Below, piece after piece: positions 3,691 through 64,000 of a stretch of DNA of 64,000 nucleotides (positions within the stretch are counted from its first letter, which is position 1; each line of letters begins with the position of its first letter). Under the pieces are notes generated by a model. That model had not been told where the DNA came from. It did no database searches and saw nothing but the letters and a program-made list of their open reading frames with translations. Made by a program: the position numbers and the translations under genes. Origin of the DNA: Naegleria gruberi (taxonomy: Eukaryota); NCBI GenBank assembly GCA_000004985.1, contig GG738859.1; one strand, written 5' to 3'.

Positions 3691-3731
3691 TTTATTCTCT
3701 ATTTAAAATTTAATTTTGAATGAATTTAAGG

Positions 3732-7708: not shown

Positions 7709-7813
7709 TTTTTTTAATCTTGGAATATTCTAAACGTAAACTATTTCAATCTTTTTCTATTTAATAATAATATTATGATATTTAATATATTTAATATTTA
7801 TAAAGTTTTACAA

Positions 7814-8606
7814 TTATTCTTCATCAACATCTGGCACTTGGAACATTCCTGGAGCATTCTTATCAACCAATCCGAAATACTTTTGAATACAAGTCTTGAA
7901 ACTATTACTACACAAAATGTAAATGAAAAGCATTCCACAATCAGTAAAGTCGGAACCTGGAATGTTTCTGTGAGTGAACATGTGGAAGAGGGAGATTGGT
8001 TCGAATGGTAATTTGGCAACAACTCTTCCATCGAAACTGTTAATTTATTCCGAAATTTAATATGATGATGATTAATTTAAATAATATATATATTCAACAA
8101 GTAGAGTTTTGTTCCAATTATAATTCCGTAACACATCCACAAAGATGACAATGATGACGTAACAAATTAATATATGATATAATTATAAATTAATAATAGT
8201 TAATATAATATGAAAAGTTGTGGATAGTGTTGAGAGAGAAAACATACGTATTATTCAATAAACCAAAAACACCAATCATGATAATACCAACAATAACGGT
8301 ACTCTTCATCTTGAACATGGACAATTCTTGTTGTTTAGCCTTGAGTTGTTCTCTTTCTCTTGTCAACATATCCTTCTTTCTCTTCAAAGACTTTTGATCT
8401 TCCTTTGAATTGTTAATACTTCCTCCTTTATGAATAATAATTGTTTCCTTCTTGGCATTATCAATTCTCTTTTGAATTTGTTCAACACTTTCTTGTAATT
8501 CTTGATATTCACTCTTCCGATAGACGAATACCCACTCGACAAAGGTTGTAAGGACAGATGTGCCCAAAGCAACCAACATTACCAAAACAGCATTTAGCAT
8601 ATTCAT
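7814..8606 (-). CDS. GET1/WRB-like receptor for tail-anchored protein insertion. Two exons: complement(join(7814..8036,8248..8606)), with a 211-nt intron at 8037..8247.
   Basis: TM1 (LNAVLVMLVALGTSVLTTFVEWVF), then a coiled-coil (EYQELQESVEQIQKRIDNAKKE...REREQLKAKQQEL), then TM2/TM3. The minus-strand GTATGT donor follows ...GLLNN-AC. Exon 2 after AACAG continues T-FDGRVVAKLPFEPISLFHMFTHR...CGMLFIYILCS, which parallels the human WRB C-terminus (VPSKWITPLDRLVAFPTRVAGGVGITCWILVCNKV). Exon 2 is not in the ORF track. Confidence 0.6.
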
Positions 8607-8769
8607 TTTTTTTAATTTTCTTAATTGTAAATTAAAAAGTATTAAACTTTTAAATTGAATTTTATGTAATATTTAATAAGTTTAAATTTAAGCATTTCTA
8701 GTATTAAATAATTACATAATATTAAATAATATTTATAATAGTTATTTAATTAAAATTTGATTAAAAAAA

Positions 8770-18323: not shown

Positions 18324-20145
18324 TTACTCAACCTTATTAATTACAATTTCACCAAATGGTTCGCTTTGGCTTACATCAATGAGACCCTTACTCTTAAGGA
18401 CCAAAGTTTCATAAAAACATCTTGCAGCAGTTTGTCTCTTTTTACCCTTCAACATTTCTGTTAAACTCAAAGAATCTGAATCAGCTTGTTTGAAACCTTC
18501 TTCTAACATGGACAAAACCTTAACAGTTCTATCAGTAACACCAGCGGCTGAAGGAGCACCACGTGCTTGTGAAGGTGTTGAAGCTCTTTCTCTCAATTCT
18601 TGCTCAATTCTATTTCTATCTTCAATGATTTGTTTCTTTTGTTGATCAGTGAGAGGAGTGGCACTCTTCTTTTTCTTAGCTGTGGAAATTAACATATCCT
18701 CAATATCTTCATCAATTAAAATATCGGCAGCAATTGGACTCAATTCTCCTGGACCAAGAGTAGTTCTTCCTCTGATACCAGTTGTTGGTTGTTCGAATGG
18801 TTCTGTTGGAGCAATATCCAAATCAGCATCCAAACCACCAATTTCAGTTGGCATTTCCATAGGTGTAATTCCAGGTGTAACAAAGACAACTCCAGGAGTG
18901 GAAGCAGCTTGTTCTCTCAATTGTTCTCTATCTCTTTCTTCTTCAGTGAGTGGCTTCTTATCCTTTGCATTTACTCTATCAATGGCTGTGGAGAAGAAAT
19001 CAATAAATCCAATTGGAAGATCCATTCCAAATGGTGTTTGTTTCCAAATATCCTTAGAAACACCTCTTTGGGCATGTCTTTCAAATTCTTCTCTTGTTGC
19101 TGGAGCATTTCCTCTTTCTGTAATTAATTCTGCTGGAGTTTTCTTCATTCTCTTTGTATAATAACCTTTAGAATAATTTGCAGGTTCATCAAAGATTAGT
19201 TTACCTGGTTTTCTCTTTCTCTTCTTGGTTGGTTGTTCTTCTTCCTCTTCTTCTTCTCCAACAGTTGGAGTTGATATTACAGGTTCTACAAGACCTGGAG
19301 TGGTAATTAGACCTTGATCAAATCCTGTGAAACCAATGTCACCAACATCAATACCACCTAATTCTCCCATTGGAGAACCTGGAACACCAGGTGTTGTGAC
19401 ATCGAATGGTAGAATATCTTGAATATCAACACCACCTTCGAATACTTTATCGGTACCAATAGTTGTGATACCTCCAGATGTGTGAATACCAGTACCACTT
19501 TGAGCAGCTCTTACACCTTCAATAGAGGTTGGTGTAGTTGTTGTTGGTGTTGTAGCAATCATGTCATCAATTTTTCCTTCCAATGAGGTCTAGAAACAAT
19601 TTCATTTAACATTTAGAAACATTACTCCAATAATACTATTAAAATCACACACTTACTGGTTCGAATGATTCTTCAGTGGTCCAAGCAGCAAAATCTATCA
19701 ATGTAATATCTTTAATATTGCTTTGCCAATTATCTCCAAGTTCCAAAGTGATGGCAGCAGCATTAGGAAGAAGAAGCAAATCCAAATCACTAACTTCAGG
19801 AAGTGTAATTTGATTCTTGGTAGCTGTTGTGTGTTGAGCTGGCATGTTAATATTTTCATCGGTAACATCCTTTGTCTTGGCTTGAAGTTTGATCTTGGTA
19901 AGAGTTTCATTACATTCGGCCAAAACATATTTTACTTTTCTAGAGTAAATCTTGACTACACCCAACAACAAGTGACCATTGGTTCTCAAGGCGATAGGAA
20001 TGGTAGGATCAACAATGCTCTTTACCGATTTTTCCAAATTTAAACCAGCAATAGCTTGCTTGTTCAACTTTTTATCCCAATGCGCGGCCAGCCAAACTTT
20101 TGCTAGAGGACCCTTCTTGGTGAGGATAAATTCAGAGTAGAACAT
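18324..20145 (-). CDS. rad21: Cohesin kleisin subunit Rad21/Scc1. Two exons: complement(join(18324..19589,19657..20145)), with a 67-nt intron at 19590..19656.
   Basis: The N-terminal domain is canonical: MFYSEFILTKKGPLAKVWLAAHWDKKLNKQAI...LRTNGHLLLGVVKIYSRKVKYVL. The C-terminal winged-helix domain is ARCFYETLVLKSKGLIDVSQSEPFGEIVI. Donor CCA|GTAAGT and acceptor TTTCTAG|ACC join ...ESFEP|TSLEGKIDDM in phase 0. Confidence 0.75.
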
Positions 20146-20273: not shown

Positions 20274-23200
20274 CTAAATATCTGTAATATGAAGTTCGTG
20301 TGATGATTCATCAAAACTTTCAGACATTTCTTCAGAATTACTTGTTTGGCTGTCTAAGGAGATAGCAGAGGAAGTTCGTTTTTTAGTGAGGTAGTCTGAG
20401 TTGTTGTTAGGTGAAAGATTCGAGTTGGACAATACATTGGAGTCCTCTGGAGATTGATCGTTGGTTGTTGATACAGCTGTTGTTGCAGTTGAAGAGACTG
20501 CTGCTGAGGAGGTGGTAGAGCTGTCATCTTCATCATATACAATGACTTTCTTCTTCTTTTTCGTTACTTGTGGTGGAACTTCGAGTTTACAACTAATTTC
20601 ATACAATTCGTCCATAGGTCTATAAATGAGATGGTTCAATCTCTGGTGAAGGAGTGGAATAATTTCAATTTGATAGAAACCTTGTTGATAGGTTTGAATT
20701 TGACGAATGAGTTGACCTAAGAGTCTTCTCTTTGAAAAGTTAATGAGATTTCCTTCCTTTGTAAAGTCAGTATTTCCTTCCTCAATGAATAACAAATCCG
20801 TCAAAAACATGCCGATATATGGTAGAACAGTCTTATCTGCATTGTTGGAGAGTGCCTCTCTCATGGCATGATAACTCTTCTTTGGGTTGGTCAATTCGAG
20901 AAGTTCTTGGAATCTAGTCTTCCACTTTTCAGGAATGAGATCCCACGTCTTTTTAAGTCTGTGAATTGGATTTGAATTCAATCCTGCTACAATATCATAC
21001 ATGGTATTGTAATTTCTAATCTTTTCACATTCTGATGCAATCTTGATGAATTGTTTCAAAACATAGGCTCTTTCTTTGACATCTTCATAGGAAAGTATAT
21101 CTGTTGCTACCCACATTCCGATTTCATTGGATCTATTAATCATGGCATAAATATTTGGTGCCTTCTTACTTCTGGTTTCTTTCATCCAGTTTTGATTCAA
21201 AAATTCTTTTGGACGCAATTTTTCAAAGAGTCTATAACTGATCAATGTCAATTGGAGACATAATCTATTATTTCCCAAATGAACTAGTGGTATATTCTTC
21301 AAATTTTCCTCACTATTTCTATTGAGAAGTTTGAATTTCTTGAGTGAGAGAAGTGTTCCACTTCCCTTACTTCCACTAGTCTTCAAATTTTCCTGCAGCT
21401 CGTGTCTGTGTTTGACTTCTTCGAGTTGTTGAACCTTGAAAGTTTCCTTTCTCTTTGAAGATCTTTGGAGGAGATTTCTCAAAGTTTTAGATAGAGTTTT
21501 CATTCCAATTTCATACATTTCATCAATGAAACTGTCCAATTTGAATTTCAACTCGACATCCTCACGGAAATCATAAAAGTGATTCTGAATCCAATTGCTC
21601 AACACTTGGCCAACTCTCAAACGCATAGGCGTAAGAATTTTAGATGAAAAGTTTTGGAAGGTAGCTTCCATTTCTTCCATCTTATTATCCCTTTCCAGTG
21701 ATAAACACTCTTGAGGTGGTGGCGTATTGAATCGGAGAATTAACTTTTCCAATAAATCCATTGGTGTTGTAAAAGATCTGTAGGTCAATAAGAAGAGGTA
21801 CATGTACTCATTCTCAAATTCTTCATTAGAAGTCAGTAACACTATCAACTTATCAAGGGTAGCAGCTCTTACAACATTCGACGTAGGATCTCTCACAATA
21901 TTAGATGGTGATTCCTCCTCATTAAATCCAACATACTTATCCAAATTGTCAGATTTAAACAGTGGCTCCAGACATTTCTCCTTAAGACAAATGAAATAAT
22001 TTTCAAATGGTTGTAATGTTGGTGCCACTGAAGAGGATGGTTGGTTCGAGTCATTTGTGGTATCAGTCTTTGAAATTGTATTATTTCTATTCTTTGAAAT
22101 TCTGGCCTTCTTTGAAAGATCGCTAGCTGTTAGAATGAGTGAAGAAGAGGCAGATTCCAAGTCAAAATCCAAAGTTGCCAATATTTGAGCCTCCTGAAAA
22201 TCATACTTCTCATAAATTGGATCCACATCAGGATATATTCCTTTGAAGAAGAATGATTCAACCTCTTGCAAGCCATACAATTGATTATTTGTAATATCAT
22301 CATAGTCTGACAGTAAATTATTTGATATATCAATGACTTTTGAGTCCACATTTGGGCTGTCAATAAATAATTGATTATTTCTCTTTCTTCTATTAGAAAG
22401 GGTTTTAATATCTTCATCAGTTAATTGAGTAATATCACCAGGTGATGAAACAGATGATGTAGCAGATGAGGATCCTAGCCTTTCTCTCAATCCTCTTGGT
22501 GTTCCTATCAATTCCAATCTTGGTGAACTCAACATGACATCTTCTGCTGCTGTTGTTGTTGTTGTTGATGAAGTACCTTCAGAGAGACTTGATTTTCTAA
22601 AAACTGGTCTCTTTACCTCTTCCGTTGGAGTTGTTGATTGATTATCATTTGTTGTTACTGGACTAGAATCAGCTGTTGGTGCTTTACTCGATTTTCTAAT
22701 TACAATCTTCTTTTTAAAACTCTGCACTCCACTATTGACAAATGGTGATGAGGGAGTTGGAGAATTGGAAGAATGTAAACTAATTGATTGATTAGTACTT
22801 GTTGTTGGAGGAGACAAACTCAATTCAGAGCCTGTATTAGGAATGGTTGAAGGAGATAACAATCTTTCTATCTTTTCATTATCATCGTCATCATAATTAT
22901 CACTCAGTGATTCATAATCTTGTTGTTGCTTATGAATGGTCAATCGTAAAGATTTGATCAATTCGTCCTTCTCCAGCAAGTTTCGTTTAGCTCTGACTAA
23001 CTTTTTATGTAAATCAAGAATGGTATTTCTCAGAGTATCCACATCAGATATATCCTCCACGTCAAATAACAGTAAATCATCATCTAATTGATTACAGGAA
23101 TTTGACTCATCATCGGAATAGGGTGATGAATTTCTTCGATTTTTAATTTGAGAGGCATGAAGATAATGTGATGTTTTTCTTGGTGAGAGGGAGAGTGGAG

Positions 23201-23393
23201 AAAGGGATCTACTATTTTGTTGTTGTACTCGATTGTTATTATTGGATGATGATGGTGATGAATAATTCTTGATATTGATAGTTGGAGTGGGATTTGAGAA
23301 GGTATCTTCATCATAGTATTCATCTTCATTGTAGACTATCTTATCAGAAGTGGAAGGAGAAATTATGATGGGAGTGGTGCTTGTAGTGGTCAT
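20274..23393 (-). CDS. Ras guanine-nucleotide exchange factor with RasGEF N-terminal and CDC25-homology catalytic domains, plus Ser/Asn-rich linkers.
   Basis: 1039-aa ORF. The REM-like region is VVRAATLDKLIVLLTSNEEFENEYMYLFLLTYRSFTTPMDLLEKLILRF. The CDC25 catalytic region is LTLISYRLFEKLRPKEF...NIYAMINRSNEIGMWVATDIL...NYNTMYDIVAGLNSNPIHRLKKTW...PYIGMFLTDLLFIEEGN. Confidence 0.8.
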   Translation of the reverse strand: MTTTSTTPIIISPSTSDKIVYNEDEYYDEDTFSNPTPTINIKNYSSPSSSNNNNRVQQQNSRSLSPLSLSPRKTSHYLHASQIKNRRNSSPYSDDESNSCNQLDDDLLLFDVEDISDVDTLRNTILDLHKKLVRAKRNLLEKDELIKSLRLTIHKQQQDYESLSDNYDDDDNEKIERLLSPSTIPNTGSELSLSPPTTSTNQSISLHSSNSPTPSSPFVNSGVQSFKKKIVIRKSSKAPTADSSPVTTNDNQSTTPTEEVKRPVFRKSSLSEGTSSTTTTTAAEDVMLSSPRLELIGTPRGLRERLGSSSATSSVSSPGDITQLTDEDIKTLSNRRKRNNQLFIDSPNVDSKVIDISNNLLSDYDDITNNQLYGLQEVESFFFKGIYPDVDPIYEKYDFQEAQILATLDFDLESASSSLILTASDLSKKARISKNRNNTISKTDTTNDSNQPSSSVAPTLQPFENYFICLKEKCLEPLFKSDNLDKYVGFNEEESPSNIVRDPTSNVVRAATLDKLIVLLTSNEEFENEYMYLFLLTYRSFTTPMDLLEKLILRFNTPPPQECLSLERDNKMEEMEATFQNFSSKILTPMRLRVGQVLSNWIQNHFYDFREDVELKFKLDSFIDEMYEIGMKTLSKTLRNLLQRSSKRKETFKVQQLEEVKHRHELQENLKTSGSKGSGTLLSLKKFKLLNRNSEENLKNIPLVHLGNNRLCLQLTLISYRLFEKLRPKEFLNQNWMKETRSKKAPNIYAMINRSNEIGMWVATDILSYEDVKERAYVLKQFIKIASECEKIRNYNTMYDIVAGLNSNPIHRLKKTWDLIPEKWKTRFQELLELTNPKKSYHAMREALSNNADKTVLPYIGMFLTDLLFIEEGNTDFTKEGNLINFSKRRLLGQLIRQIQTYQQGFYQIEIIPLLHQRLNHLIYRPMDELYEISCKLEVPPQVTKKKKKVIVYDEDDSSTTSSAAVSSTATTAVSTTNDQSPEDSNVLSNSNLSPNNNSDYLTKKRTSSAISLDSQTSNSEEMSESFDESSHELHITDI

Positions 23394-51503: not shown

Positions 51504-53924
51504 TTATTCGTCATCGTCTGAATCTTCTTCGCTGTCTTCTTCGCCTTCCTCAATGTCTTGTTCAAAATCATGTTTTCTCTTCTTGTTGGATTTAATACTT
51601 CCTGATTCTTCGTCATCGTCGTCTTCGTCCTTATTCTTTCTCTTCTTTCCTAGAGCATCCCTAATACCTGCTTCTTCATCATCGAGATCTTCATCAGAAT
51701 CATCTTCCATGTCAAGATCAGTTCCTAAGGCATCAATAAGTCCACCCATTTCATCATCCTCATCATCTTGCTCTTCTTCAGAATCAGATCCCATAATTTC
51801 CTCCTCATCAGAATCATCTTTAATTTCTTCTTCTTCATCTTCATCGACGAGGTCAACCATTTCGTCATCCTTTTCGTCTTCTTCGTCTGCTTCTTCATCA
51901 GCCTTGAATTCATCATCGTCTTCATCTGCTTGGAATGCATTGAGTAAACCAGCATCGATATCACCATCCACTTTCATGTTACCTTCTTCTGGAGGTACTT
52001 CCTCTTCATCATCTGATAAATAAACCTTCTTCTTGCTTGGCTTTTCCTGCACTTCAAGCACTTCAACAACATCAATTTTGGATTTCTTTGAACTTTTCTT
52101 GCTTGGCTTTTCTGTTGTTGCTGTTGCTGTTGCTGTTGTTTCAGCAATTGATTCCTCCTTTACATCAAAGCCAAAGTTTTGCTTAAGTTTTGGTAAACTC
52201 AGATAGAAATTGACTTCATTAAATGGATTGAAGTCTGGCTTCTTATTTTCGTCTTCCTTAGCTAAACTGACAAGTTCAGCACCACCTCTTGACATTCTCG
52301 AAATCATCTTTCTTGCAAAAGAACTTTGAGTATCTGGACTTACACCCATCGAATTGAAACACATTAATATCTTTTCTGTTGTCATTTTAGTGTCTTTTTG
52401 TATAGCAGCAACGAGTTCTTTCCTCATATAGAAATTACACATGAGTAAGGCAGATGCAAGAAGGTGACAAGCAATACGAACTTGTACAGTTTTACAAATA
52501 AATTTGTCAACATTCAAATGTCTCAATTCTCTTGGTCTAGTCTTTTCATCAGTAACAGCAAAACGAAGAAGTAAATCTTGAAGACATTTTGAAGATTTTG
52601 GAAGGAAGAGATATGGGTGTTTCTTCATTGCTTCAACTGGAGCATTTGGGAAAATAGCTTCAACACTTTCAATACCAGTATCCTTCTTTTCTTTCTTTTT
52701 TTCTTCCTTTTCTTCCTTTTCCTTCTTTCCAGCTTTCTTAGTTTGTTTACGATCAAGAATTCCATTTACATAACAAGTTCTAATAATATTTTGAGCATGA
52801 TCCTTGAATCTTTTAGCTTGTGAAATTTGGAAAAGACCCAACATGACCATATAATAATGAGCAATAGCTGGAATGTCACCAGCAACAGTTTGTAAGAATG
52901 TTGAGAAATCCTTTTGATTATCCGTTTCCTCTTGATCAGAATCTTGTTCGTCATCACTAGTAATGAACTTTTTCTTTTTCTTTCTCTGTTCTTTAGAGAC
53001 AGCATTCCAATTCCTATTATCAATTATTGAACCAAAATAGGTTTGTAAGAATTGTGGAAGGTGGGTGAAATCTGATGTTGATTTAATATTCACATTAACA
53101 TCTTCACTCAAAGCACCTGTTTCTTCAGTGGCATCTTCAAGAACTGCCCAAACTTTTTGAAGTGACTTGTTTCTATTGTGTTTTTCCTCAAATTGTTCAA
53201 TGAGTTGTTTCTCTGAAAATAATAAATCCCTCTTTAAATCAAGAACTTCATGTAAATGAGTTGTATGAATATTGAAACTTGGCATGTACTGTTGCATAGT
53301 AGACAAGGCAGAAGCTCTTGTTGTTTTTCCGACCAATGTTTGCAATTCTTGTAATTGAGCCTTTCTCAAATCAGTTGCTGAAGTAGTAGCTCTCTTTTCT
53401 TGAATTTTAGTGTATTTCTTAGAGTTGAAAAGTGTGAGACCATCGTTTTTAACAATGGCACCACCAAGTACTCTCTTTTCAAAGAATTGTTTGTATGTGA
53501 TACCTGGTTGGACAGAATCAATTCCTCCTTGTTCAATTTCCCTCTTTAAAGTTTCCTTTCTTTCAATATTTTGTTTAGAGTCCTCGTTAATAACATAAAA
53601 TTCAGGTACATCAATAATTGTTGGCTTGCTTTTACCTTGTTTTACTACAGCCAATAAATATTTAGACCCTTGATTTGTGTTATTTGATGAAAATTGCATT
53701 GTTTTAGATTCTCCGTATAAGAAAGACTTGGATTCTTCATCTCGCACTAATGTAAAGTGTACATTAGAAATATTAGGAGGTGCAGAGATTGAATTTGAAA
53801 ATTGAACAACACATGGTGTTGTCAAGGATGTTTTTTTGCTCTTTTTAGAGGAGCTTCTTGTCTTCTTTTCATCCTCTGAAGATGATGAAGATGACTCCAC
53901 TGGCTTGTTTTTGTGTTTACCCAT
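51504..53924 (-). CDS. RNA polymerase I subunit RPA49/PAF53-like protein with a ~230-aa acidic C-terminal tail.
   Basis: The N-terminal region (VHFTLVRDEESKSFLYGESKTMQFSS...KYLLAVVKQGKSKPTIIDVPEFYV) and the block AHYYMVMLGLFQ parallel yeast A49 (HGENERLEYEGY...QYVVGLFNPEKKSIQLYKAPV...LYYLSLLLGVY). This is a from-memory comparison. The last ~230 aa are D/E-rich and acidic with KKRK patches. Confidence 0.45.
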   Translation of the reverse strand: MGKHKNKPVESSSSSSEDEKKTRSSSKKSKKTSLTTPCVVQFSNSISAPPNISNVHFTLVRDEESKSFLYGESKTMQFSSNNTNQGSKYLLAVVKQGKSKPTIIDVPEFYVINEDSKQNIERKETLKREIEQGGIDSVQPGITYKQFFEKRVLGGAIVKNDGLTLFNSKKYTKIQEKRATTSATDLRKAQLQELQTLVGKTTRASALSTMQQYMPSFNIHTTHLHEVLDLKRDLLFSEKQLIEQFEEKHNRNKSLQKVWAVLEDATEETGALSEDVNVNIKSTSDFTHLPQFLQTYFGSIIDNRNWNAVSKEQRKKKKKFITSDDEQDSDQEETDNQKDFSTFLQTVAGDIPAIAHYYMVMLGLFQISQAKRFKDHAQNIIRTCYVNGILDRKQTKKAGKKEKEEKEEKKKEKKDTGIESVEAIFPNAPVEAMKKHPYLFLPKSSKCLQDLLLRFAVTDEKTRPRELRHLNVDKFICKTVQVRIACHLLASALLMCNFYMRKELVAAIQKDTKMTTEKILMCFNSMGVSPDTQSSFARKMISRMSRGGAELVSLAKEDENKKPDFNPFNEVNFYLSLPKLKQNFGFDVKEESIAETTATATATTEKPSKKSSKKSKIDVVEVLEVQEKPSKKKVYLSDDEEEVPPEEGNMKVDGDIDAGLLNAFQADEDDDEFKADEEADEEDEKDDEMVDLVDEDEEEEIKDDSDEEEIMGSDSEEEQDDEDDEMGGLIDALGTDLDMEDDSDEDLDDEEAGIRDALGKKRKNKDEDDDDEESGSIKSNKKRKHDFEQDIEEGEEDSEEDSDDDE

Positions 53925-54095: not shown

Positions 54096-55211
54096 TTATA
54101 TAATGTTCAGTGTTTCCAAATCCTTTTGAAGCAAGATATTCTTCACATCATTAAAGACCATCTTGATATTATTGGTGTTGGTGGCTGTTGTTACATGGCT
54201 ATAGAGTTGAGTATTCTTAGAGTTAAGTGATTTGAATTTGTTAATGATGAAATCTCGAGCTGATTCATATTGATGTCCTCCATGGTAATCACTAAAGGCC
54301 ACTCTCAGATCTGCATTCTTAATCTTTTCTCTGAACAGATCATCCTTGTTGAATAAGACAATAATTGGAATGGACTTGAAACAATCAAGCTCACAAATTT
54401 CTCTAAAAAGAAGTAAGCTTTCGTGTATTCTATTGGTAGTCTTATCTTCCTCTAAATTCATATCAAAATCATTAAGTGAGCAAATAAACACGACAGCTGT
54501 AGTATCCACAAAGGCATGAATCCACTTTCTTCTCTCCGTCCTTTGACCACCAACATCTGTGAATTTCCATCTGTATCCATCGGCATCAAATTCAACCTCA
54601 GTAATACCTAGGGTGGTTAATCTGGCTTTGATGATGTCTTCCTGGGTGGCTACATAATCTGGTTTGCATATTCTTTCACAATGATCCAGGAAACTGTTGA
54701 ATTACCAATGATGAAAATTAATTAATATATATTAATTAGAACAATCATTTCTTAAATAACATCTTCAAATAACTTACTATTCAATAGTGTCATTGATGGT
54801 AAATTCAGATCTTTTGGCCAAACACTGTTTCATGCCTGGATCTTTCCACAGTTTTGCAATCTTTCCAGCAATATCCTCTCCATAATTCTCGGTTTTTGTT
54901 GTTAGGATTTTTTGAATTTCAATAACAGGCTCCTTAGCAATAGACATTATCATTGAGGCTGTATCTTCATTCTCCTTCATCAACTCAATTCCTAGATCGT
55001 GCATTGCTTTGAGTATTGCCGAACATCCCTCAATCAAATTCTCTCTCACCACATTCGACATGGAAATCTTTTCCTTCTCTGTGAAGGGCTTATTATTAAT
55101 AATTCTCAATTGTTTAAAGAGTGTACTCTTTCCACTTTGAGCCGTACCTAGCAAAATGAGCTTTAACACTCTCTTTGGTTCATCTTCACCTCCACAGTCA
55201 AAGCAGCCCAT
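54096..55211 (-). CDS. Heterotrimeric G-protein alpha subunit. Two exons: complement(join(54096..54693,54778..55211)), with an 84-nt intron.
   Basis: MGCFDCGG... has an N-terminal Gly and Cys for lipidation. The P-loop variant is LLGTAQSGKSTLFKQ. After donor TA|GTAAGT and acceptor AACAG|T, the protein continues TIE-Y-FLDHCERICKPDYVATQEDIIKARLTTLGITE...FTDVGGQRTERRKWIHAFVDTTAVVFICSL (DVGGQR), ...LFNKDDLF (NKxD), ...TTATNT. The ORF track shows only two fragments of this gene. Confidence 0.8.
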
Positions 55212-55670
55212 TTTTTTCTTAATAATTTAATCCTTAAGGATTTTACTTCTTAACGGTCAAAAGAAAAAGACTTGATGAATCGTTCCTTCTTTCCAATGCA
55301 TGAATATATAAAGCAGTGAATTAAAAATGGAACAAAAAATTCAAAATTCCTTAACATTGTTTTTCAATTCAATTGAAGTAATTGACCATGAATGGGTAGT
55401 TTTTTAGTTCTACGGAGTTTCAAACTCCAGCAATCTATCATAATTTTATTAGAAAAAGAACAAGCAATTCTCTTTATGATTTCTAATTTAAAAAAATGAG
55501 AAAACGTTGCTGAGCAACACATAATCATCAATTATTACATTCATTAAAACAATTATTGATCAGTAAAGAGAATTTAAAATCGGATACTATTTACTATTCA
55601 TTTATACATCATCAGCATCATTTAGAAAAATATATATCTTGTTGTTGTTATTACATAAGACAAGGTGAGA

Positions 55671-58600
55671 ATGAGATTACCAATTCCTCAAAATGTAATG
55701 CCGAATAATATGGCAAATAATCATCATCATCCTCCTCATCATCATCAAAATAATAATTACCCTAAACATCATTATCATGCCCATTCACGATTTAATGTTA
55801 ATACTCAACAAAAGCATTTACCACTTTTCAGAAGGGATTTTATTATAGTGGCTGAGTTTTGTGAACAGAAGGGTCCGACACCTCTTCTCGTCTTGCCAAA
55901 TGATCGAGCCTTGGAACGTTTCAATGTTCAAAAGTTTGTAACAAGAGTATTGGCTGGTGATCACACAAGGAAACACGACAAGTTGGGAGATAATTGTACT
56001 TGGATTTGTCCAGAGGATACTCAAGTCTACTTGACAGATTCTGCTCAAGGAGCTTTTGCCTATGTATGTTTCAAAATCAATTCATTATTGGAAATTAATT
56101 TTTACTATCTTTCTCTGTTAACTTTACTGTTTATTTATCTTGTTTGATTATCAATCATCTACACAACAACAGGTACATCACATTACACTTCATGATATCA
56201 ATGCAAGAGGATATGTTAGACCAATGGTCATGTGCTATGTGACCAATGATAAGGATAAAATAATGCACCATTTTGAATACTTGCTAAATACCTTTACACA
56301 AGTTTCACAAACACTCAAGTATGGAAACAATTGTAAATTCTTGAGCGATACTCAACATCAATTATATGGAATTCAGAAAATAGAAATGAAATTACATCCC
56401 AACAGTGGAAATGAACTGTCTTCACCAAGTATTAGTTCCTCACAGGAATTATCAAATGAAGAAAAAATTGAAAAACGTTGGAGAGAAATGTCAGAAGGTT
56501 TATTCTCTCCCAACAATGAGAATGCACTTTCAAAGGATACTTTCGAATTGGTAATGAAAGAATTGAAGGATTTGAGACGAAGATTCATGATACACATGAA
56601 CAAGTCCTCATCCATACTGAAACCAAAAAAGAAGACTCAAAAAAACAAAAAGAATTCCAAATCAGGTCCATTACAAAATCATACATATTTATTTGAAGAA
56701 TCGAGGTCAAGATCTGCGAGTAATAGCTCACAATCTACCTATGGAGCTGGGTCCACAGAGGAAGATAATTCCGATCAGGAAGTTTCTTCGCTAGGAGATC
56801 CTAGTAGTGGTGACTACAAAGTAGTTCAAATTGTACATAATAGCAGCAGTGGAAACAAATTGGAGGAAAATGATTTCAATGAAGAATTGGATGAAGAGTC
56901 TACCGAACTCATCCTCAATAAGATTGCTGATGAGGAAACTCTTGATACGGGGTTAATCGATCATATTTACATGTCGTTTAGTGCTGGAACTTCCTCAGTT
57001 TCATCTCTACATTTACATCCAACATTTGCAGTTAATCCTAAGGCAAATCTGAATGCTGTACCATATAAGAGTTCGCATTTTGTTGGAGGGTTTAGTGGTG
57101 CTAGTGTTGGTGCTCCAACAACAGCCTTCTTGTCCTCTCCTCATCAAGGTTCACATATTCAAAACACATCTCATATGGTGAATGTACTGAATGATATTAG
57201 TGATTCTCCATATTTGAACAGCATTTCCAGTCCAACATTCAATGCAATGAATTCTCTCAAGGTTCAAAATCCTGACTTTGTGGAATTGTATGAGACTGGT
57301 CTTTCTGTGTCCTCTCATAATTTGAAACAATTCATGCCAACCATTTTAAGATGTATCCACAGAAATACTAATTTTGAAACCACCCTGAGAACGTTAGCTC
57401 AAATTGCTGGACAGAAATTTTATGAAACATCGGTTGATTTGATGTTGAATATTATCGAACATTTCTATAGAGATTGTGATGTTATTGATATGGAAAATGC
57501 CGACTTGGATATTATCAATTCGAATGACCTTAACTCAATGCTCTTCATTGGAAGAAACTTTTTATTGGACTTTAATATTGAAAATGGTTATCATTACCCA
57601 CCAACGTTAAGCAATACCACATTTACAAAGAGCTTCCAATACCAATCAGCTCTGAATACTAGTGCTAGCATCAACTCTTCCAATGATGAAGTTTCATGGT
57701 TAGACAATGAAAATACATACAATGATGCTGAAGATGAGGCACTATCAACCATCTCTCATGATGAGCAAGACAATCCACTATTTGGAAGCTTCCCTTCCTC
57801 CTCTCCTGTGATGGCAAACAACTCTATCGAACAAAGCAACTCTCTTTCAACCAACAACAGTGACCGCTTTCAACTGTACAGAAATGGATTCAAGGGCACT
57901 GGTTCCTATGTCAATAGTCTATTCCAAGAATATGACAAGTATGATGAATTATTCCACGAATTGAAAAAGAGAAAACATAATTCCTCCAATTATACTGCAT
58001 CAAATAATAACCAAAATCAATCCCTTCTAACCTCTCTCCTGTTTGAATATAATTATGGTGAGCATAGTTACGGAAAAGGAATATTAAGGTTTTTCAGAGA
58101 ATTTTCATTCACAAAAGATATTGCCTACTCCATCATGATTGGTCGACCTATAGTAATATATGCAGATTCTAATCAAGAACAGTAAGTATTAGATCACCAC
58201 TCTTTTCAAAAATTAATTAATACTTTTATCCAATACAGAATTGTAAGAAGTATTGTCAACTCCCTAGCTTTATTCATACCAGGGTTTATCAATGGAACAT
58301 TTGAAAATACAAAGAATGACTACTTTTCTGTTTGTTATTGGAAGACCACTCCAATCAATGTAAGTTTTTTCAGCAACATTCAATATCAACTCTGAAAAGA
58401 TTCTTGATTTTTCCACAAACAAGATTATTGGGCTGAGTAAGAAAGTTCATTTCCCTACAACATTCGAATCTTGGGTGAGCATTTTGGATTTGGAAAATGA
58501 ACTCTATACTGGACCAAGCTATTATGGAAGATATTTGGATATTATCTTTGATGAGTCAAAGGAGTGGTTTACTGAGGATGCATTCTTGGCCTTTACGCAT

Positions 58601-59083
58601 GCCATCTTTTTAGAAATGGGCATGAAGGCATCACTCTACAATCAATTGTATTCCATTGCAAAAACTAGAGGGCACTTTTACAAGAAATCCCTCCACAAAA
58701 TCTCAACCACTGATCAAGCACCAAAAGATGGAGGAAGATCATCTCTATTTGGACCAATGTTCCCATCCCTACCACCACAAATGATTCACAAACATAATTC
58801 TCAATCCTCAAAGAAATCCAAACAAAAGAAAGCCTCTCAGCATTCACACAGCTACCCTATTGGTTCAGGTGCTCTGGAATCCATGAAAGATTGCAGTAAG
58901 ACCATCCAAAGACAATTAGGACTCAAATCTTGTGACTCTAAAATAGTTGATTATTTGGTAGATTTGATTCACATTCAGGAATCTATGGAATTAATGTTAA
59001 ATCCAGTCCTTCAAAACTCCATTCGTGTTGACACTGAAGTTTCTCTCAAGCATACCAATAAAAGAAGAAAACAAACCAAGTGA
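55671..59083 (+). CDS. Folliculin (FLCN) homolog. Four exons: join(55671..56063,56173..58181,58239..58359,58424..59083).
   Basis: The N-terminal longin-like region matches human FLCN: FRRDFIIVAEFCEQKGPTPLLVLP (cf IVALCHFCELHGPRTLF), and GAFAY|VHHITLHDINARGYVRPMVMCYVTNDKDK (cf [31 protein letters not shown]). GTATGT or GTAAGT donors lie at 56064, 58182 and 58360; acceptors at 56172, 58238 and 58423. All junctions are in frame and they link the three ORF-track pieces plus a 121-nt exon that has no ORF-track entry. The C-terminal DENN-like segment is ...IVRSIVNSLALFIPGF...IIGLSKKVHFPTT...DAFLAFTHAIFLEMGMKASLYNQ. The ATG at 55671 is the first in-frame ATG; the track starts on GTG at 55665. Confidence 0.7.
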
Positions 59084-60104
59084 GATGGACAATCCACTGT
59101 GGTATTCCTGATAATCGAAAAAGTGACTTATTTTATCAAATTTTCAATTGTTTCAATGATTTAAATTCAATCACAAGATAGATGACAATGAAATGAAACG
59201 GAATTGTTGTACAGTTAATTGAAGATGATCCACTTATCATGTGGTTGTAATAATTTACTTTCATTGTGTTCGCTTCACACTTTGGATCATTTATAGAATG
59301 AGAGTAATTAATTGGAATTTCATTTATTCGAAACCATGAATCCCAACTCTCACGATATTTTTATTCGAATTATCCATCAACAGACATTCAAACACTTTTC
59401 GTGATGAAAAAACTGTAAATGTACTTTTCAATGCTTGTTCCATCATCAATACATTTCAAGTTGGTTCTCAGTGAGAGATATTTCTCTTACCATTCATCTT
59501 ATTGAAAAACAAAGCTCTTTGGAAGTGCTCTAACCCTAAACTAAAAGAAAGATCATTTCGTTTACTTTCGTCTTCAGTTTCTGATTTTGACAACAATCTT
59601 GCATAAGATAATCCCACAAGTCAACCAAATCTCAATTATTGCAACTCATTCCAATGATGTGAATCACTTGCCGAGTATTTCACGCTGCAAGCCAAATAAA
59701 ATTCATGCCTTCTTTTTTAATGGTTGTTCGTCAAAATGATGTATGGAGACGTCAGTTGTCTATCAATAAAAAACAACGTAAAAAAAAACACTTTTCATCC
59801 TCTCGCACACTCACTTCATCCAAAACTTCATCAACGAAGCGAAAAGGACAAACTTGAAAACACAACACACTGATTAAAACATTGAAGTGTGTTCCATTGT
59901 TCATTAAAGGCGTTTTCCTCTCTAAAACATTGAAAAAAAAAAGCGGCGCGCTTTATTTACCGTAAATTTTAAAACATAGATAACACACAACGCAGGAAGT
60001 TGCTTTTGTTTTCTCTCTCACTCTCTAGGAATAAGAAGATAACACACATATAATATTTGTAGATTACAAATTACATACAACAATTGATTTAATATAGAAG
60101 AAAA

Positions 60105-61357
60105 ATGGGTATTTGCGCAACTAAACAACCAGGATCAGTCCAAGCACTGAATGAAATTGAAAAGGGAAGACAACAACAAGAAAGAGAAATTAAAGTCTTG
60201 CTTTTGGGAGCAGGTGAATCTGGTAAGAGTAAGTAATCATAACGATAATTGATGGTGGTTGACCATATACAACAATAACAATTTTAATAACTACAAACTA
60301 CTAATGATTGTTTGTTGAATGAACATGTTTAATAATGGTAATGATGATCATATGAAAACCTTTTATCTTTGTTTCTTCAACTTTAACTGATTATAAATTT
60401 ATATATTGATGATTTATAATAGGTACCATTTTCAAGCAAATGAAGATTATCCATCAAAATGGTTACTCTGAAGAAGAAAGAGAATCATACAAGGAAATTA
60501 TCTACGGTAACATATTAAAAGCCATGAAGAATCTGGTCCAAGCGACCTTCTCTTTTAACATTCCTATTGAACAGGAAGAAAACAGAGAACGTGCTGGTAA
60601 GATCAATGAACTCGAACAAGAAGCTCTGCTACACGTACATAAATATTGGACAGCTGAAATTGCTGACGATATTCAATGTTTGTGGTCAGATCCTGGTATT
60701 CAAAAAGTTTTTGAGAAACGTAACGAATTCCAATTGGACGATTCTGCTCCATACTATTTCACTCACCTTGATAGAATTAAACAAGCTGACTATAAGCCAA
60801 CTTTAGAAGACGTTGTCAGATCAAGAGTCAAGACAACTGGTATTGTAGAAATGAGCTTTAAATTAGATGATAGATCTGTAACCTTGATCGACGTTGGTGG
60901 CCAAAGAAACGAACGTAAAAAGTGGATTCACTGCTTTGAAGGTGTCACTGCTATTATCTTTGTTACATCACTGAGTGAGTATGATCAAAGATGTTATGAA
61001 GATGATTCCACCAACCGTATGCATGAATCCTTGCTATTGTTCGACGAAATTTGTAACTCTAGATGGTTCATGGATACATCCATTATCTTGTTCTTGAACA
61101 AGATGGATTTGTTCAAGGAAAAGATCAAGAGAACTGATCTCAGTCAATTCTTCCAAGAATATGAAGGTGGTAGAAACTTTGAAACTGCTGCCAGCTTTAT
61201 TCGTTCTAAATTCGAAGAAAAGAACAGAAATCCAAGACACAAGACCATCTATGCTCACTTTACATGTGCCACAGATACACAACAATTACAACAGGTCTTT
61301 GATGCCATCAAGGATATCATTCTTAACAAGACTTTAAGAGAACAAGGTCTTTTCTAA
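60105..61357 (+). CDS. Canonical heterotrimeric G-protein alpha subunit. Two exons: join(60105..60228,60423..61357), with a 194-nt intron.
   Basis: Exon 1 encodes MGICATKQ...EIKVLLLGAGESGKS. After donor A|GTAAGT and acceptor AATAG|GT it continues -TIFKQMKIIHQNGY. All G boxes are present: RSRVKTTGIVE, LIDVGGQRNERKKWIHCFEGVTAIIFV, LFLNKMDLFKEKI, TCATDTQ. Confidence 0.85.
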
Positions 61358-61575
61358 ATGTCCTCCCACATTGTCATATTACTCTATTATCAACCCAAAA
61401 GAACTTTTCCAATTCTCTTTCCCCACAAACAATCACACATAAAACATCGAATGAAAATAAGTGTTCAATTTTGTAAATAACATAATACTTCAATTCCAAT
61501 TAAATAAAAACACATTAAAAACATTATGAAACAAACGAGTGAGCGAACAAACTCAAATAATGAAAGAACTAAAAA

Positions 61576-62661
61576 ATGGGTGCAAAACAAAGCAGGAATA
61601 GTGCAAAGAAAGTAGACGAAAGCTCATCCACAATACAAGAGAAGAAAATACAAGAAAGAACCGTTATGCTTTTCTCAAAATGCGGAGCAAGTACATTCAG
61701 CAGACAACTCACGAATGATAAATTACATGATAAAAATCAAATTGACTATTGTTGTCATGCTCTGTTATCACGAATGGAAAATTTTGATGAATTTTATTCT
61801 ATGGATGAAGAATTTGCAAGATTAAAGAATTTCAATCAATTTAATAGAATTCCAAGACCTAGGGAAATGCTTACAAGAATTTGGAAACATGACGAAATGA
61901 GACGAATCTTAATGGAAAAGTATCACAATGTTTGGAGATTTGAAAATTTATCTTTATTTATGGAACACTTATTGAATGGAAATTTTGATAATCAATTGGA
62001 AAATCCTTTTACATATGCTTCAACAAAAACAACAGGTGTTATAATTAGTGATTTCATTCATAGTGATCCAATTATTGGTCAACCCATTAAATACAATCTA
62101 GCAGAAATTGGAGGATCTAGAAGTGAATGGAAGAAAGCATTTATCTGTTTTGAAAATGTTTATTTTATATTCTTCTTTTGTGGACTTTCGGATTTTCATG
62201 ATAATCCTAACTATGATTTCGAACATGAATTTGTAAAATTCAATTATGTTTTTACCTGCAATAAGTTTCATGAGATTAATCCAAATTGTAGAATAATATT
62301 CTTATTTACAAAACCAGACATCTTACAATCAAAGCTTAAAAGGGGCAGTATTTATGACATTAAGAAGAATTATGAAATAAGGGAAGAATTGAAACAAATA
62401 TCAAATGAAAATGAAAGAAATGTCATCAATTCCATAGTATGTGATTTTTTTGCAGAGCACGAGACGGAGTATCACATTGTAAATTTACTAAATAAGGAGG
62501 AGGTTAATCAGGTGAGAGATTTGATTTTGAGTGGAGTGAAATCAAGGTTTCCATTCATTTCTAAATGTTTGAGAGATGAAGGAAAATGGAGGCAAGTTCT
62601 TTTCAGAATATTGAAAGATTCTAAACTTGGTGATATTTCAATAATTGCCAGAGGTGAATAA
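61576..62661 (+). CDS. Divergent G-alpha-like protein, a probable pseudo-GTPase paralogue, lying 219 bp downstream of the canonical G-alpha.
   Basis: MGAKQS is an N-myristoylation-type start. The protein is colinear with G-alpha but has degenerate nucleotide-binding motifs: P-loop LFSKCGASTFSRQ (vs GAGESGKST), switch I ASTKTTGV (the Arg is lost), switch II LAEIGGSRSEWKKAFICFENVYFIFFFCGLSDFHDN (DVGGQR becomes EIGGSR), NKxD becomes FLFTKPDIL, and TCAT becomes IVCDFF. The helical-domain and C-terminal regions keep the G-alpha length. Confidence 0.6.
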   Translation: MGAKQSRNSAKKVDESSSTIQEKKIQERTVMLFSKCGASTFSRQLTNDKLHDKNQIDYCCHALLSRMENFDEFYSMDEEFARLKNFNQFNRIPRPREMLTRIWKHDEMRRILMEKYHNVWRFENLSLFMEHLLNGNFDNQLENPFTYASTKTTGVIISDFIHSDPIIGQPIKYNLAEIGGSRSEWKKAFICFENVYFIFFFCGLSDFHDNPNYDFEHEFVKFNYVFTCNKFHEINPNCRIIFLFTKPDILQSKLKRGSIYDIKKNYEIREELKQISNENERNVINSIVCDFFAEHETEYHIVNLLNKEEVNQVRDLILSGVKSRFPFISKCLRDEGKWRQVLFRILKDSKLGDISIIARGE

Positions 62662-62719
62662 ATGTATTTAATTGTATTATTTTGAAATATATAGACAGTA
62701 CTAATAATATGAAGGAGAA

Positions 62720-62792
62720 GCCGACATAGCTCAGTTGGGAGAGCGTAAGACTGAAGATCTTAAGGTCCCTGGTTCGATCCCTGGTGTCGGCA
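62720..62792 (+). tRNA. tRNA-Phe, anticodon GAA, 73 nt. This is the second copy and is identical to the tRNA at 40044..40116.
   Basis: The same 73-nt sequence GCCGACATAGCTCAGTTGGGAGAGCGTAAGACTGAAGATCTTAAGGTCCCTGGTTCGATCCCTGGTGTCGGCA. The 3' flank is similar to copy 1 (CAAATTTTAGATTTTAG vs CAAATTTTGATTTTG). Confidence 0.9.
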
Positions 62793-63018
62793 AATTTTAG
62801 ATTTTAGTGTCTTCCCTTAACTGCACAATAGCCATTTTCATAACGATGCAATCTCAAAATAAATTCATGTTAAAAAAATGTTAGAAAAAAATTAATTCTT
62901 TCATTTTTGGTAGTTTACCATTTTGGTTAATTTATCTTCAATATTTGCTATTATCCTTTTTTGTTTTTTTTACTTTTTGGCTACCTTTTCCAAGTTATCT
63001 TTAAAAAAAACAAGCAAA

Positions 63019-64000
63019 ATGGTAGAATCACCAATTCTTCAAAAAGATCCTAATGAACAGCTGTTGCTACAAAGCCAAAAGCCACTTGGTCAACCACAAC
63101 AGCAACCTTACAATGCCATGCAAATGGAACTCACTCCACAACAGCAAACTCTGGAAAGTGTTGATAGACAAATGACTCAAGCATTTGGTCAACCATTGCC
63201 CCAACAGCAACCCATCCAATTTCAACAGCAACAACCATTAACCAGTAGTAGTGGTACCTTGCCAACTGCTAGCAATTTGGAAAGAAGAGAAGAACCTGAA
63301 AAACTTATTCAACCTTCTGAAGAATTAATGGAAGAGAAACAAGGTGGTAGTGCTCTTGGTGTTAGCAACATTTCTGGTTCTAGTAGTGGAGCTACTCAAC
63401 AAATGTCCATTTCTCCTTCGGTAGAAAAGTCAACCTTGCCACCCTTACCAACTAGTACCTTGCCTCAATCTGAACCATTTAGCCAGGAACAACATATGGT
63501 TAGTCATGATGTGAAAACACCTCACATTCGTGAGTACCCATGTATGAAAGCAGTTGTTACTTGTAACTATCAACAAGATGAACCAGAACACATGCTTGTT
63601 TATGTTGACAAGTATCCAAGACCTATTCGTATGAAATCTGATGAAATTCTTGTCAGAATGAAATGTGCTAGTGTCAATGATTTGGATTACAAAATCTGTC
63701 AAGGTAAAATTCCAGTTGAAATTCAAACTACTCCAATTCATTATCCGCTCATTGTTGGCGCAGATGGATGTGGTATAATTGAGAAATTAGGTGGAGATCC
63801 AACTAATCTCAGAGTAGGTGATTGTGTCTTTGGTTTCACCAATCAATTGGGTACATTTGGTGAGTTTGCTATCTTTAAGGAGAGAGAAGTCATGATGAAA
63901 CCTGACTGGTTGAGTATGGAAATGGCCAGCTGCATTCCATTCAGTGCTCTTGCTGCAATGAATTGTTTCCTTCTTGTTGATAAGAAGAGAAAGAAGAAAC
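63019..64000 (+). CDS. Medium-chain dehydrogenase/reductase, zinc-type alcohol dehydrogenase / quinone-oxidoreductase-like. It is 3'-partial and runs off the window end.
   Basis: The reading frame is open from the ATG at 63019 to position 64000. It is absent from the ORF track because no stop lies within the window. After a Q/S-rich N-terminal region comes an MDR GroES-like fold: ILVRMKCASVNDLDYKICQGKIP...PLIVGADGCGIIEKLG...LRVGDCVFGF. Confidence 0.55.
   Translation, partial: MVESPILQKDPNEQLLLQSQKPLGQPQQQPYNAMQMELTPQQQTLESVDRQMTQAFGQPLPQQQPIQFQQQQPLTSSSGTLPTASNLERREEPEKLIQPSEELMEEKQGGSALGVSNISGSSSGATQQMSISPSVEKSTLPPLPTSTLPQSEPFSQEQHMVSHDVKTPHIREYPCMKAVVTCNYQQDEPEHMLVYVDKYPRPIRMKSDEILVRMKCASVNDLDYKICQGKIPVEIQTTPIHYPLIVGADGCGIIEKLGGDPTNLRVGDCVFGFTNQLGTFGEFAIFKEREVMMKPDWLSMEMASCIPFSALAAMNCFLLVDKKRKKK

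Follow-up and report, generated by a model that had tools for sequence, protein, structure and literature searches.

A Gα-like gene with degenerate nucleotide-binding motifs beside a canonical Gα gene in Naegleria gruberi

A stretch of 64,000 nt from Naegleria gruberi (GCA_000004985.1, contig GG738859.1), referred to below as the window, was analyzed with a focus on its genes for homologues of G-protein α subunits (Gα). Three such genes (D2VAE3, D2VAE5, and D2VAE6, here called genes 1, 2, and 3, all on the same 530-kb scaffold) matched Pfam PF00503 at the positions proposed in an initial annotation of the stretch; no other Gα gene was detected in the window by PF00503 or by a six-frame hidden Markov model (HMM) scan. 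The order is Gα1 (gene 1, minus strand), SMCR8 (plus), Gα2 (gene 2, plus), gene 3 (plus), a transfer RNA (tRNA) gene for Phe, and an alcohol dehydrogenase (ADH)-like gene (plus). On balance, the evidence tilts toward gene 3 being a real, selectively maintained Gα-fold gene of a vahlkampfiid family, the product of which may act as a membrane-anchored, nucleotide-independent decoy or adaptor.

Gene 3 and the state of its G boxes

Gene 3 is a single unbroken open reading frame (ORF) of 361 codons, and its product was 100% identical to the annotated N. gruberi predicted protein. Comparison with the Pfam G-alpha profile PF00503 gave 62.3 bits (cut-off 48.8, E = 5.8e-17); the match spanned only profile positions 83–327, and the P-loop region was left unaligned. 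The motif states were read from alignments to human Gαi1 (GNAI1) and to genes 1 and 2, and the segments concerned are listed in Table 1. In the P-loop the Walker-A lysine was replaced (K46 to Ala) and two residues were deleted, with S47 and T48 being retained; the conserved glycines G40 and G42 were absent, and the resulting SKCGAST does not conform to GxxxxGK[ST]. The change of DVGGQR to EIGGSR removed the catalytic Gln from switch II, where 10 of the 18 positions corresponding to Gαi1 residues 199–216 were kept. Switches I and II together agreed with Gαi1 at 14 of 27 positions, compared to ~24% identity overall. The initial annotation was right about four boxes, i.e., the loss of the P-loop, the Arg finger, the switch II Gln, and TCAT, but it overstated the loss of NKxD, which reads TKPD with the Lys and Asp kept. 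It had also allowed that a missed intron in 61,576–62,661 might restore the P-loop and switch motifs. No P-loop-like GxxxxGK[ST] motif was present in any frame of positions 61,300–62,700, so a missed exon is excluded; the single ORF and the end-to-end alignment with the family described below, together with this frame scan, ruled out both a missed intron and an alternative P-loop exon. Gene 3 is thus predicted to be intact and to encode a catalytically dead Gα-fold protein.

An AlphaFold2 model of gene 3, built on a 20-sequence family alignment, had a mean predicted local distance difference test (pLDDT) score of 77.8 and a predicted template modeling (pTM) score of 0.76. The model comprised a Ras-like domain with an inserted helical domain, the latter smaller than in Gαi1, and its elements followed the Gα order (β1-α1, helical domain, β2-β3, α2, β4-α3, β5-αG, α4, β6, and a short α5). 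When this model was compared with the PDB by using Foldseek, the 50 best matches listed were all Gα chains (E ∼1e-11), including N. fowleri Gα7 and Entamoeba Gα1, with alignments of ~335 columns and TM scores of 0.5–0.66. The model and the structural comparison agree with the initial proposal that gene 3 retains the overall Gα fold. The N terminus (MGAKQSRNSAKK) contains Gly2 and Ser6 with basic residues next to them, a combination that suits N-myristoyltransferase substrates, and the pattern MG[STAG]K[QPSN]S was found repeatedly at the N termini of full-length family members. Retention of a myristoylation-type start (MGAKQS), also proposed earlier, is consistent with these features.

At the opposite end of the protein, the model predicts a shortened α5 (residues 307–318 only) followed by a family-specific extension (residues 319–361) that occupies the place of the receptor-coupling α5 tail, which gene 3 lacks. 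Within this extension, the FISKCL segment was modeled with a pLDDT of ~88 and the terminal helix (residues 336–347) with lower confidence. No Pfam domain matched the C-terminal extension in the 20 family members scanned, and no further exon was seen downstream of gene 3. A BTB-like continuation of the LxDIxI motif past an intron was considered and rejected: the three forward-frame translations of positions 62,600–64,000 contained nothing BTB-like, the downstream region holds a tRNA gene and then a gene of the ADH/medium-chain dehydrogenase/reductase (MDR) type, and all family members stop at the same point.

A divergent Gα-like family and constraint on gene 3

When 1.8 billion representatives were searched exhaustively with HMMER, a single close relative of gene 3 emerged, the protein P0003 (NAEGRDRAFT_50404), together with a tail of distant hits with E values from 3e-22 to ~1e-4. 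About 20 distant relatives share with gene 3 several features that are foreign to canonical Gα: the motifs SLSEF, [T/S]KPD[IV]L, and xINSIxxE[YF], YHIVN at the TCAT site, and a C-terminal extension in which FISPCL is followed by ~15 residues, LxDIxI, and the end of the protein. The gene 3 versions of these motifs are TKPD, VINSIVCDFF, YHIVN, FISKCL, and LGDISII. Named members come from N. gruberi (D2VBI2, D2VVW3, D2VG73, and D2VTR3), N. lovaniensis (three proteins), and Willaertia magna, and the remainder are from environmental contigs; all are annotated as predicted or hypothetical, and PF00503 matched 20 of 20. As known so far, the family appears to be confined to vahlkampfiid amoebae (Naegleria and Willaertia) and to be fast-evolving. 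A profile search with the family alignment against a word-indexed protein database returned only 4 proteins and was uninformative as to taxonomy. One of the N. lovaniensis members, C9374_002998 (contig PYSW02000017.1, positions 6489–8906), is annotated as a 301-residue protein with no N terminus; a short ORF just upstream (7770–7958) weakly matched the Gα HMMs, and the annotated model is therefore probably truncated.

The initial annotation described gene 3 as a degenerated tandem duplicate of the adjacent Gα gene. An HMM of the extension-bearing family, trained with gene 3 and its close paralogues left out, aligned gene 3 end to end (positions 2–350 of 353) with 171.2 bits, whereas a canonical-Gα HMM gave 74.0 bits and covered residues 36–313 only. 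Genes 1 and 2 behaved in the opposite way, scoring 148 and 159 bits with the family HMM and 378 and 467 bits with the canonical one. BLASTP aligned 202 residues, about half of the protein, between gene 3 and gene 2 at ~24% identity (E = 3e-9), and the intron of gene 2 is absent from gene 3. Because of the HMM scores, the family signatures including the extension, and the missing intron, origin by tandem decay is not supported in N. gruberi. These sequence comparisons point to gene 3 being a member of a separate, older, divergent Gα-like family.

The G boxes vary across the family. The alignment shows the G4 Lys and Asp at 90–100% conservation (K270, at least 90%; D272, without exception), and the YHIVN His hardly varies. 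One or two members still have the catalytic Gln, and about three still have the Arg finger. An intact Walker-A GK[ST] is present in nine members with complete N termini; Ala replaces this Lys in gene 3 and P0003 and Thr replaces it in D2VVW3, and one environmental sequence has lost it as well. Ancestrally, the family thus appears to have been GTPase-deficient but probably nucleotide-binding, with the gene 3 branch having gone one step further.

P0003, which is encoded on another scaffold, is 70% identical to gene 3 and has a similarly Lys-less P-loop (PGSGASTF), so the loss of the Lys predates the duplication of the two paralogues and has been tolerated since. Both genes retain full-length frames at ~30% amino-acid divergence, and the indels between them are in frame only. 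In gene 3, 5.5% of random substitutions give stop codons, and neutral simulation to 15% amino-acid divergence left the frame open in 0.8% of lineages, or ~6e-5 for both. The nonsynonymous and synonymous rates were dN = 0.131 and dS = 0.321 (dN/dS = 0.41; bootstrap 95% interval, 0.22–0.73) as calculated from the 145 most divergent codons, i.e., the first 145 of a metagenome contig (ENA ERZ929261, 1226 bp) that served as a proxy for the paralogue. The ratio reached 1 in 0.3% of the replicates; this comparison, which had been suggested as a check on the degenerate copy, points to genuine but relaxed purifying selection. The contig itself is of mixed character when compared with positions 61,571–62,695 of the window. 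Its 5′ flank and first ~140 codons resemble NAEGRDRAFT_50404 (2 differences in ~140 residues), while over the 3′ half and 3′ flank it shows 5 differences from the window in ~660 nt (~99% identity). The changeover falls within ~40 nt (codons 126–139), consistent with either a chimera produced in assembly or an allele that is truly recombinant or gene-converted. DNA of NAEGRDRAFT_50404 was not on record, and a metagenome scan found no relatives. No exact-match transcript of gene 3 is on record, no papers naming its identifiers or the ENA project codes were found, and the gene is annotated just as a predicted protein.

Neighboring genes and conservation of the locus

The spliced models of genes 1 and 2 were identical to the annotated proteins D2VAE3 and D2VAE5. 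Gene 1 has two exons (55,211–54,778 and 54,693–54,096) flanking an intron (54,777–54,694) that begins with GTAAGT and ends with CAG. Its C terminus, LNII, agrees with the cloning primer for N. fowleri Gα1, and its sequence identifies it as the orthologue of that protein. The switch I Arg, DVGGQR, and NKDD are intact, and both gene 1 and N. fowleri Gα1 possess the GTAQSGKS P-loop, which is therefore conserved across Naegleria species. Gene 2 also has two exons (60,105–60,228 and 60,423–61,357), with a phase-1 intron within the Ser codon of GKS. It agrees with the N. fowleri Gα2 primers (EREIKV... and ...EQGLF*) and is, by sequence, the orthologue of N. fowleri Gα2. All of its motifs are canonical (GAGESGKST, RVKTTGI, DVGGQR, NKMD, and TCAT), whole-protein identity to the Willaertia protein is 88%, and the second exon is 95–97% identical to those of N. 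fowleri and N. lovaniensis by tblastn. A transcript-like Logan contig of 1333 nt (98% protein and 88% DNA identity to gene 2) precisely lacks the intron at 60,229–60,422. This verifies the splicing and points to the gene being expressed in a related strain.

The gene between Gα1 and Gα2 had been taken for a folliculin (FLCN) homologue acting as a GAP (GTPase-activating protein) for Rag GTPases. Its product instead matched human SMCR8 in a phmmer search of the PDB (E = 1.5e-39) over the longin (52–210) and DENN (764–914) regions, and no FLCN chain was matched at E ≤ 10 in that search. The Pfam Folliculin N-domain gave a weak match on the large exon (E = 0.002, below the cut-off), and the syntenic genes of N. 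lovaniensis and N. fowleri carry PF27109 SMCR8_C. We consequently assign the gene, on sequence grounds, as an SMCR8 orthologue rather than FLCN, and the Rag GTPase link therefore does not apply. The gene model contains three GT..AG introns of 109, 57, and 64 nt. The N. gruberi protein aligns over both domains with human SMCR8, a C9orf72 partner in the FLCN/SMCR8 longin-DENN clade, and conserves HHxTLxDxxARGxVRP, but it carries long low-complexity inserts. Its motif HHITLHDINARGYVRP keeps the Arg aligned to human R147, which the 2020 structure papers reportedly describe as the Arf/Rab GAP finger of the SMCR8-C9orf72 complex.

Table 1. Positions of genes, spacers, and motifs at the Gα locus (window coordinates)
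Feature	Position	Strand	Description
Gene 1, Gα1, D2VAE3 / NAEGRDRAFT_47943	54096..55211	-	Pfam G-alpha on both exons
Gene 1 P-loop GTAQSGKS (T23-A24-Q25)	55125..55148	-	Unusual and rare, yet intact
Gene 1-SMCR8 head-to-head intergenic region	55212..55670	.	459 bp
SMCR8 orthologue, 1060 aa	55671..59083	+	Exons 55671-56063, 56173-58181, 58239-58359, 58424-59083
Gene 2, Gα2, D2VAE5	60105..61357	+	Canonical Gαi-like subunit, Pfam G-alpha
Gene 2-gene 3 spacer	61358..61575	.	218 bp
Gene 3, D2VAE6 / NAEGRDRAFT_65833	61576..62661	+	Intronless, 361 aa, candidate Gα-like pseudo-GTPase
Gene 3 MGAKQS, myristoylation-type motif	61576..61593	+	Gly2, Ser6, then basic residues; from sequence
Gene 3 degenerate G1/P-loop LFSKCGASTFS	61669..61701	+	Gαi1 GAGESGKST to F--SKCGASTF
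Gene 3 switch I YASTKTTGV	62014..62040	+	Gαi1 RTRVKTTGI; Arg finger R178 to S, KTTG and T181 kept
Gene 3 switch II EIGGSRSEWKKAFICFE	62104..62154	+	Gαi1 DVGGQRSERKKWIHCFE; D200E, Q204S
Gene 3 G4 variant FTKPDIL	62305..62325	+	NKKD to TKPD, Asn alone changed
Gene 3 YHIVNLL at the G5 site	62470..62490	+	TCAT to VNLL
Gene 3 C-terminal extension FISKCL ... LGDISII	62554..62646	+	From family alignment; after shortened α5
tRNA-Phe (GAA)	62720..62792	+	ARAGORN; starts 59 bases past the last base of the gene 3 stop codon

Three Gα genes lie within 7.5 kb, an arrangement expected by chance in ~0.1% of genomes (P ~0.001) when 44 Gα genes are placed uniformly in ~41 Mb, reportedly the genome size given in the N. 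gruberi genome paper. The clustering thus exceeds chance under uniform placement. The complement of ~44 Gα proteins is that of Anantharaman et al. 2011 as cited in PMC8584482. The divergent spacer between gene 1 and its neighbor, first put at ~450 bp, measured 459 bp; gene 3 was correctly described as colinear with gene 2 on the same strand, the spacer being 218 bp rather than 219 bp. The end coordinate first assigned to this neighborhood, 62,792, falls in the tRNA-Phe gene and outside the group of G-protein genes, and the syntenic regions in N. lovaniensis, N. fowleri, and Willaertia carried no tRNA gene. Elsewhere in the window, the proposed G-protein signaling regulator (RGS) gene (14,814–16,766) and RasGEF gene (20,274–23,393, minus strand) are real. 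Two minus-strand ORFs between them (18,324–20,145) have Rad21/Rec8 N- and C-terminal domains and are probably a single cohesin kleisin gene split by an intron. An 806-residue ORF on the minus strand (51,504–53,924) directly adjoins gene 1; both of its ends are low-complexity, very acidic and rich in Lys. The ADH_N/MDR-type oxidoreductase-like gene (~62,990–64,000, plus strand) runs past the end of the window; the genes that come after the Gα2 region in N. lovaniensis and N. fowleri are its orthologues (~43% identity) and are unusually long, at 974–1036 residues.

Since the source of the window is N. gruberi, the comparison with the Dictyostelium gpaA-L set and dictyostelid synteny that had been suggested was aimed at the wrong lineage, and we compared the locus among vahlkampfiid amoebae. 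In N. lovaniensis, Gα2 (plus strand) is followed after 200 bp by a gene for a 424-residue protein, here called NL3 (plus), then the ADH_N gene (plus), and SMCR8 (minus), which is head-to-head with Gα1 (plus) across 505 bp. In N. fowleri, Gα2 is followed by three minus-strand genes without a Pfam match, the ADH_N gene, and SMCR8 (minus); no Gα-like ORF was found after Gα2 there. In Willaertia magna, no SMCR8, Gα1, or gene-3-like gene was found within 10 kb of Gα2. From these comparisons, the pairing of Gα1 head-to-head with SMCR8 and, more generally, the grouping of Gα1, SMCR8, Gα2, and ADH are traits of the genus Naegleria. Phylogenetic footprinting against N. lovaniensis revealed only chance-level matches in both intergenic regions. 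Preservation of the pair in N. lovaniensis despite a rearranged neighborhood modestly favors the linkage behind the suggested co-regulation of Gα1 and its divergent neighbor; the lack of conserved intergenic sequence and the absence of such linkage around Willaertia Gα2 do not. The Willaertia contig (JBEGDK010000153.1) also encodes, 5 kb upstream of the Gα2 orthologue, a single-ORF protein of 1064 residues with a Gα domain (1647–4841, minus strand; 171 bits with the canonical HMM), which may represent an extra-large Gα architecture.

NL3 (PYSW02000026.1, 11,532–12,889), directly after N. lovaniensis Gα2, is itself degenerate. Its P-loop reads GPSGAGIST (Lys to Ile), its Arg finger is Gly, and its switch II is DPNQAG. 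Its identity to Gα2 is 28% (E = 4e-39); it shares the phase-1 intron of Gα2, which interrupts the GK-S Ser codon, retains an intact NKMD, has no FISPCL extension, and scored 59 bits with the family HMM versus 155 bits with the canonical HMM. NL3 and gene 3 show no detectable orthology (blastp E = 2.1) and have nothing in common beyond both being Gα. Because of its Gα2-like intron, identity, and NKMD, the tandem-decay scenario appears to hold in N. lovaniensis but not in N. gruberi. The presence of non-orthologous dead Gα genes after Gα2 in two species could be a coincidence in an expanding family, or it could be a sign of selection for a dead partner beside Gα2.

Proposed function of gene 3 and comparison with known systems

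We infer for the gene 3 product a mode of action that does not depend on nucleotide. With the Walker-A Lys gone as well in this branch and the P-loop shortened by two residues, GTP hydrolysis would be impossible, and GTP binding of useful affinity is most likely absent. The protein would be tethered to the membrane via N-myristate plus the adjacent basic residues, and it would act through the surfaces it has kept, namely KTTG in switch I and the greater part of the switch II/α2 helix; these surfaces correspond to the sites on Gα for RGS proteins, Gβγ, and effectors. As a decoy or adaptor it might sequester or position such partners, and Naegleria has >100 RGS domains. Coupling to seven-transmembrane receptors would not be expected, with the canonical α5 tail being replaced. 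A role as regulator or decoy, already raised by the initial annotation, seems the most reasonable reading. Several observations weigh against it. The retained S47, T48, T181, G203, K270, and D272 are nucleotide or Mg contacts, so residual or non-canonical nucleotide binding may persist. The N-terminal 25 residues, corresponding to the αN region that aids Gβγ binding, are short and were modeled with low confidence, and the switch II Trp211 is out of register. The GC content of gene 3 (~29–30%) is near the intergenic level, and the dN/dS of 0.41, which rests on 145 codons of a metagenome contig taken as the paralogue, indicates fairly relaxed constraint. In a neighbor-joining tree of 100 Gα proteins, none of 100 bootstraps grouped the family as a clade. 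The distances in this tree were saturated (~2 substitutions per site, some undefined); therefore, we did not rely on it and used the leave-out HMM comparison instead.

The same retained contacts would suit a protein that binds nucleotide in a non-canonical manner and functions as a permanently on, hydrolysis-dead Gα-like switch. The P-loop Ser/Thr, Thr181, the DxxG glycine, and the G4 Lys and Asp are all kept in gene 3, the last two being invariant or nearly so over the family, and the nine members that combine an intact GxxxxGK[ST] with loss of the catalytic Gln and/or Arg suggest that the ancestral state was probably GTP-bound and GTPase-deficient. In gene 3 itself, however, Ala replaces the Walker-A Lys, the P-loop is two residues shorter and lacks G40 and G42, and the G5 box is replaced; such combined losses normally abolish tight binding in other GTPases, and we consider a switch of this kind unlikely. 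The loss of all catalytic motifs, the low GC content near that of intergenic DNA, and the lack of a literature or transcript match would also fit an untranscribed or non-functional pseudogene whose frame is still open by chance. That explanation is very improbable given two full-length paralogues at ~30% divergence (simulated chance ~6e-5), indels confined to in-frame events, a dN/dS below 1 in 99.7% of bootstraps, and blocks strongly conserved with distant family members as far as the last 10 residues. Less probable still is a young, decaying tandem duplicate of Gα2, despite the colinear, same-strand position of gene 3 218 bp downstream and the resemblance of NL3, with its phase-1 intron and NKMD at the same site, to a degenerated Gα2 copy. 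Against such an origin stand the ~24% identity over 202 residues, the lack of the intron, the 171 bits versus 74 bits with the two HMMs, and the insignificant similarity to NL3 (E = 2.1). In addition, the family defined by TKPD, YHIVN, and the FISPCL extension occurs elsewhere in N. gruberi and in N. lovaniensis and Willaertia, and by distance to gene 3, gene 1 ranks 41st and gene 2 ranks 36th of 100.

A further question is whether Gα1, SMCR8, Gα2, and gene 3 form a functional unit, co-regulated or interacting, e.g., with SMCR8 acting on Gα. Clustering at P ~0.001, the head-to-head Gα1-SMCR8 pair and the dead Gα after Gα2 in N. lovaniensis, the proximity of SMCR8 to Gα2 in N. fowleri as well, and the conserved Arg matching human R147 (reportedly the catalytic GAP finger) are compatible with this idea. 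No intergenic motif is conserved between species, however, the block order varies, Willaertia Gα2 lacks these neighbors within 10 kb, and local duplication in an expanded family within a gene-dense genome accounts for the Gα clustering. In addition, the substrates generally ascribed to SMCR8-C9orf72 are Arf and Rab GTPases, not Gα. We regard a functional unit as improbable. It is also doubtful, if marginally less so, that the position 3′ of Gα2 is under selection for a P-loop-dead Gα-like gene serving as a decoy co-expressed with Gα2; if true, the coupling of a working Gα to a dead one would be a regulatory scheme reached repeatedly and by convergence in these amoebae.

The preferred reading, in which gene 3 is a maintained nucleotide-independent decoy or adaptor, would, if true, provide a second, independent case after the plant extra-large Gα (XLG) proteins of a Gα turned nucleotide-independent regulator. 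The family offers a natural series, from intact to Lys-less P-loops, in which to follow a Gα scaffold role without nucleotide. The Naegleria G-protein repertoire is among the largest known, and G proteins of the pathogenic relative N. fowleri are under study as drug targets. The present analysis delimits the extension-bearing family and its Lys-less sub-branch and adds the evidence for constraint and the synteny comparison; it corrects the earlier picture with respect to the organism, the identity of the neighbor as SMCR8 instead of FLCN, and the origin of gene 3 in an old divergent family.

Canonical Gα proteins (PF00503; N. fowleri Gα1-7, Bosch et al. 2022) share with gene 3 the Ras-like plus helical fold, KTTG, most of the switch II helix, and the N-terminal lipidation motif. 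Gene 3 differs from them by the loss of G1, the Arg finger, the DxxGQ Gln, and G5, by an altered G4, by a reduced helical domain, and by a shortened α5 with a 40-residue extension at the receptor-binding C terminus. Deviant catalytic motifs, suggestive of a loss of nucleotide-dependent activity, occur in some Gα of Dictyostelium, Naegleria, and plants (Anantharaman et al. 2011, Gene 475:63, as reported in PMC8584482), so the general phenomenon is, on that report, already published; gene 3 is very probably among the motif-deviant Naegleria proteins noted there. Like pseudoGTPases, gene 3 has a GTPase fold with G motifs that are incompatible with catalysis, and it has been kept by selection, as judged from sequence, model, and simulation. 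Arabidopsis XLG2 lacks the catalytic Arg and Gln and binds GTPγS 100–1000 times more weakly, yet it still binds AtRGS1 and Gβγ (bioRxiv 10.1101/795088). XLG2 and gene 3 are alike in having a Gα fold, a nucleotide pocket that is compromised, and neither the Arg nor the Gln of catalysis, and each occurs alongside a canonical Gα; nucleotide-independent action via RGS and Gβγ binding, which has been proposed or shown for XLG2, a "decoy" Gα, is what we propose for gene 3 by analogy. The two are otherwise dissimilar. XLG proteins have a long N-terminal extension with Cys-rich and nuclear localization signal elements and no N-myristoylation motif, whereas gene 3 has ~25 residues before β1, a myristoylation-type start, and a C-terminal extension; moreover, gene 3 has also lost the Walker-A Lys, unlike XLG2, and the two arose independently, in heteroloboseans and in plants. 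Gene 3 may thus be, at most, a functional analogue of XLG.

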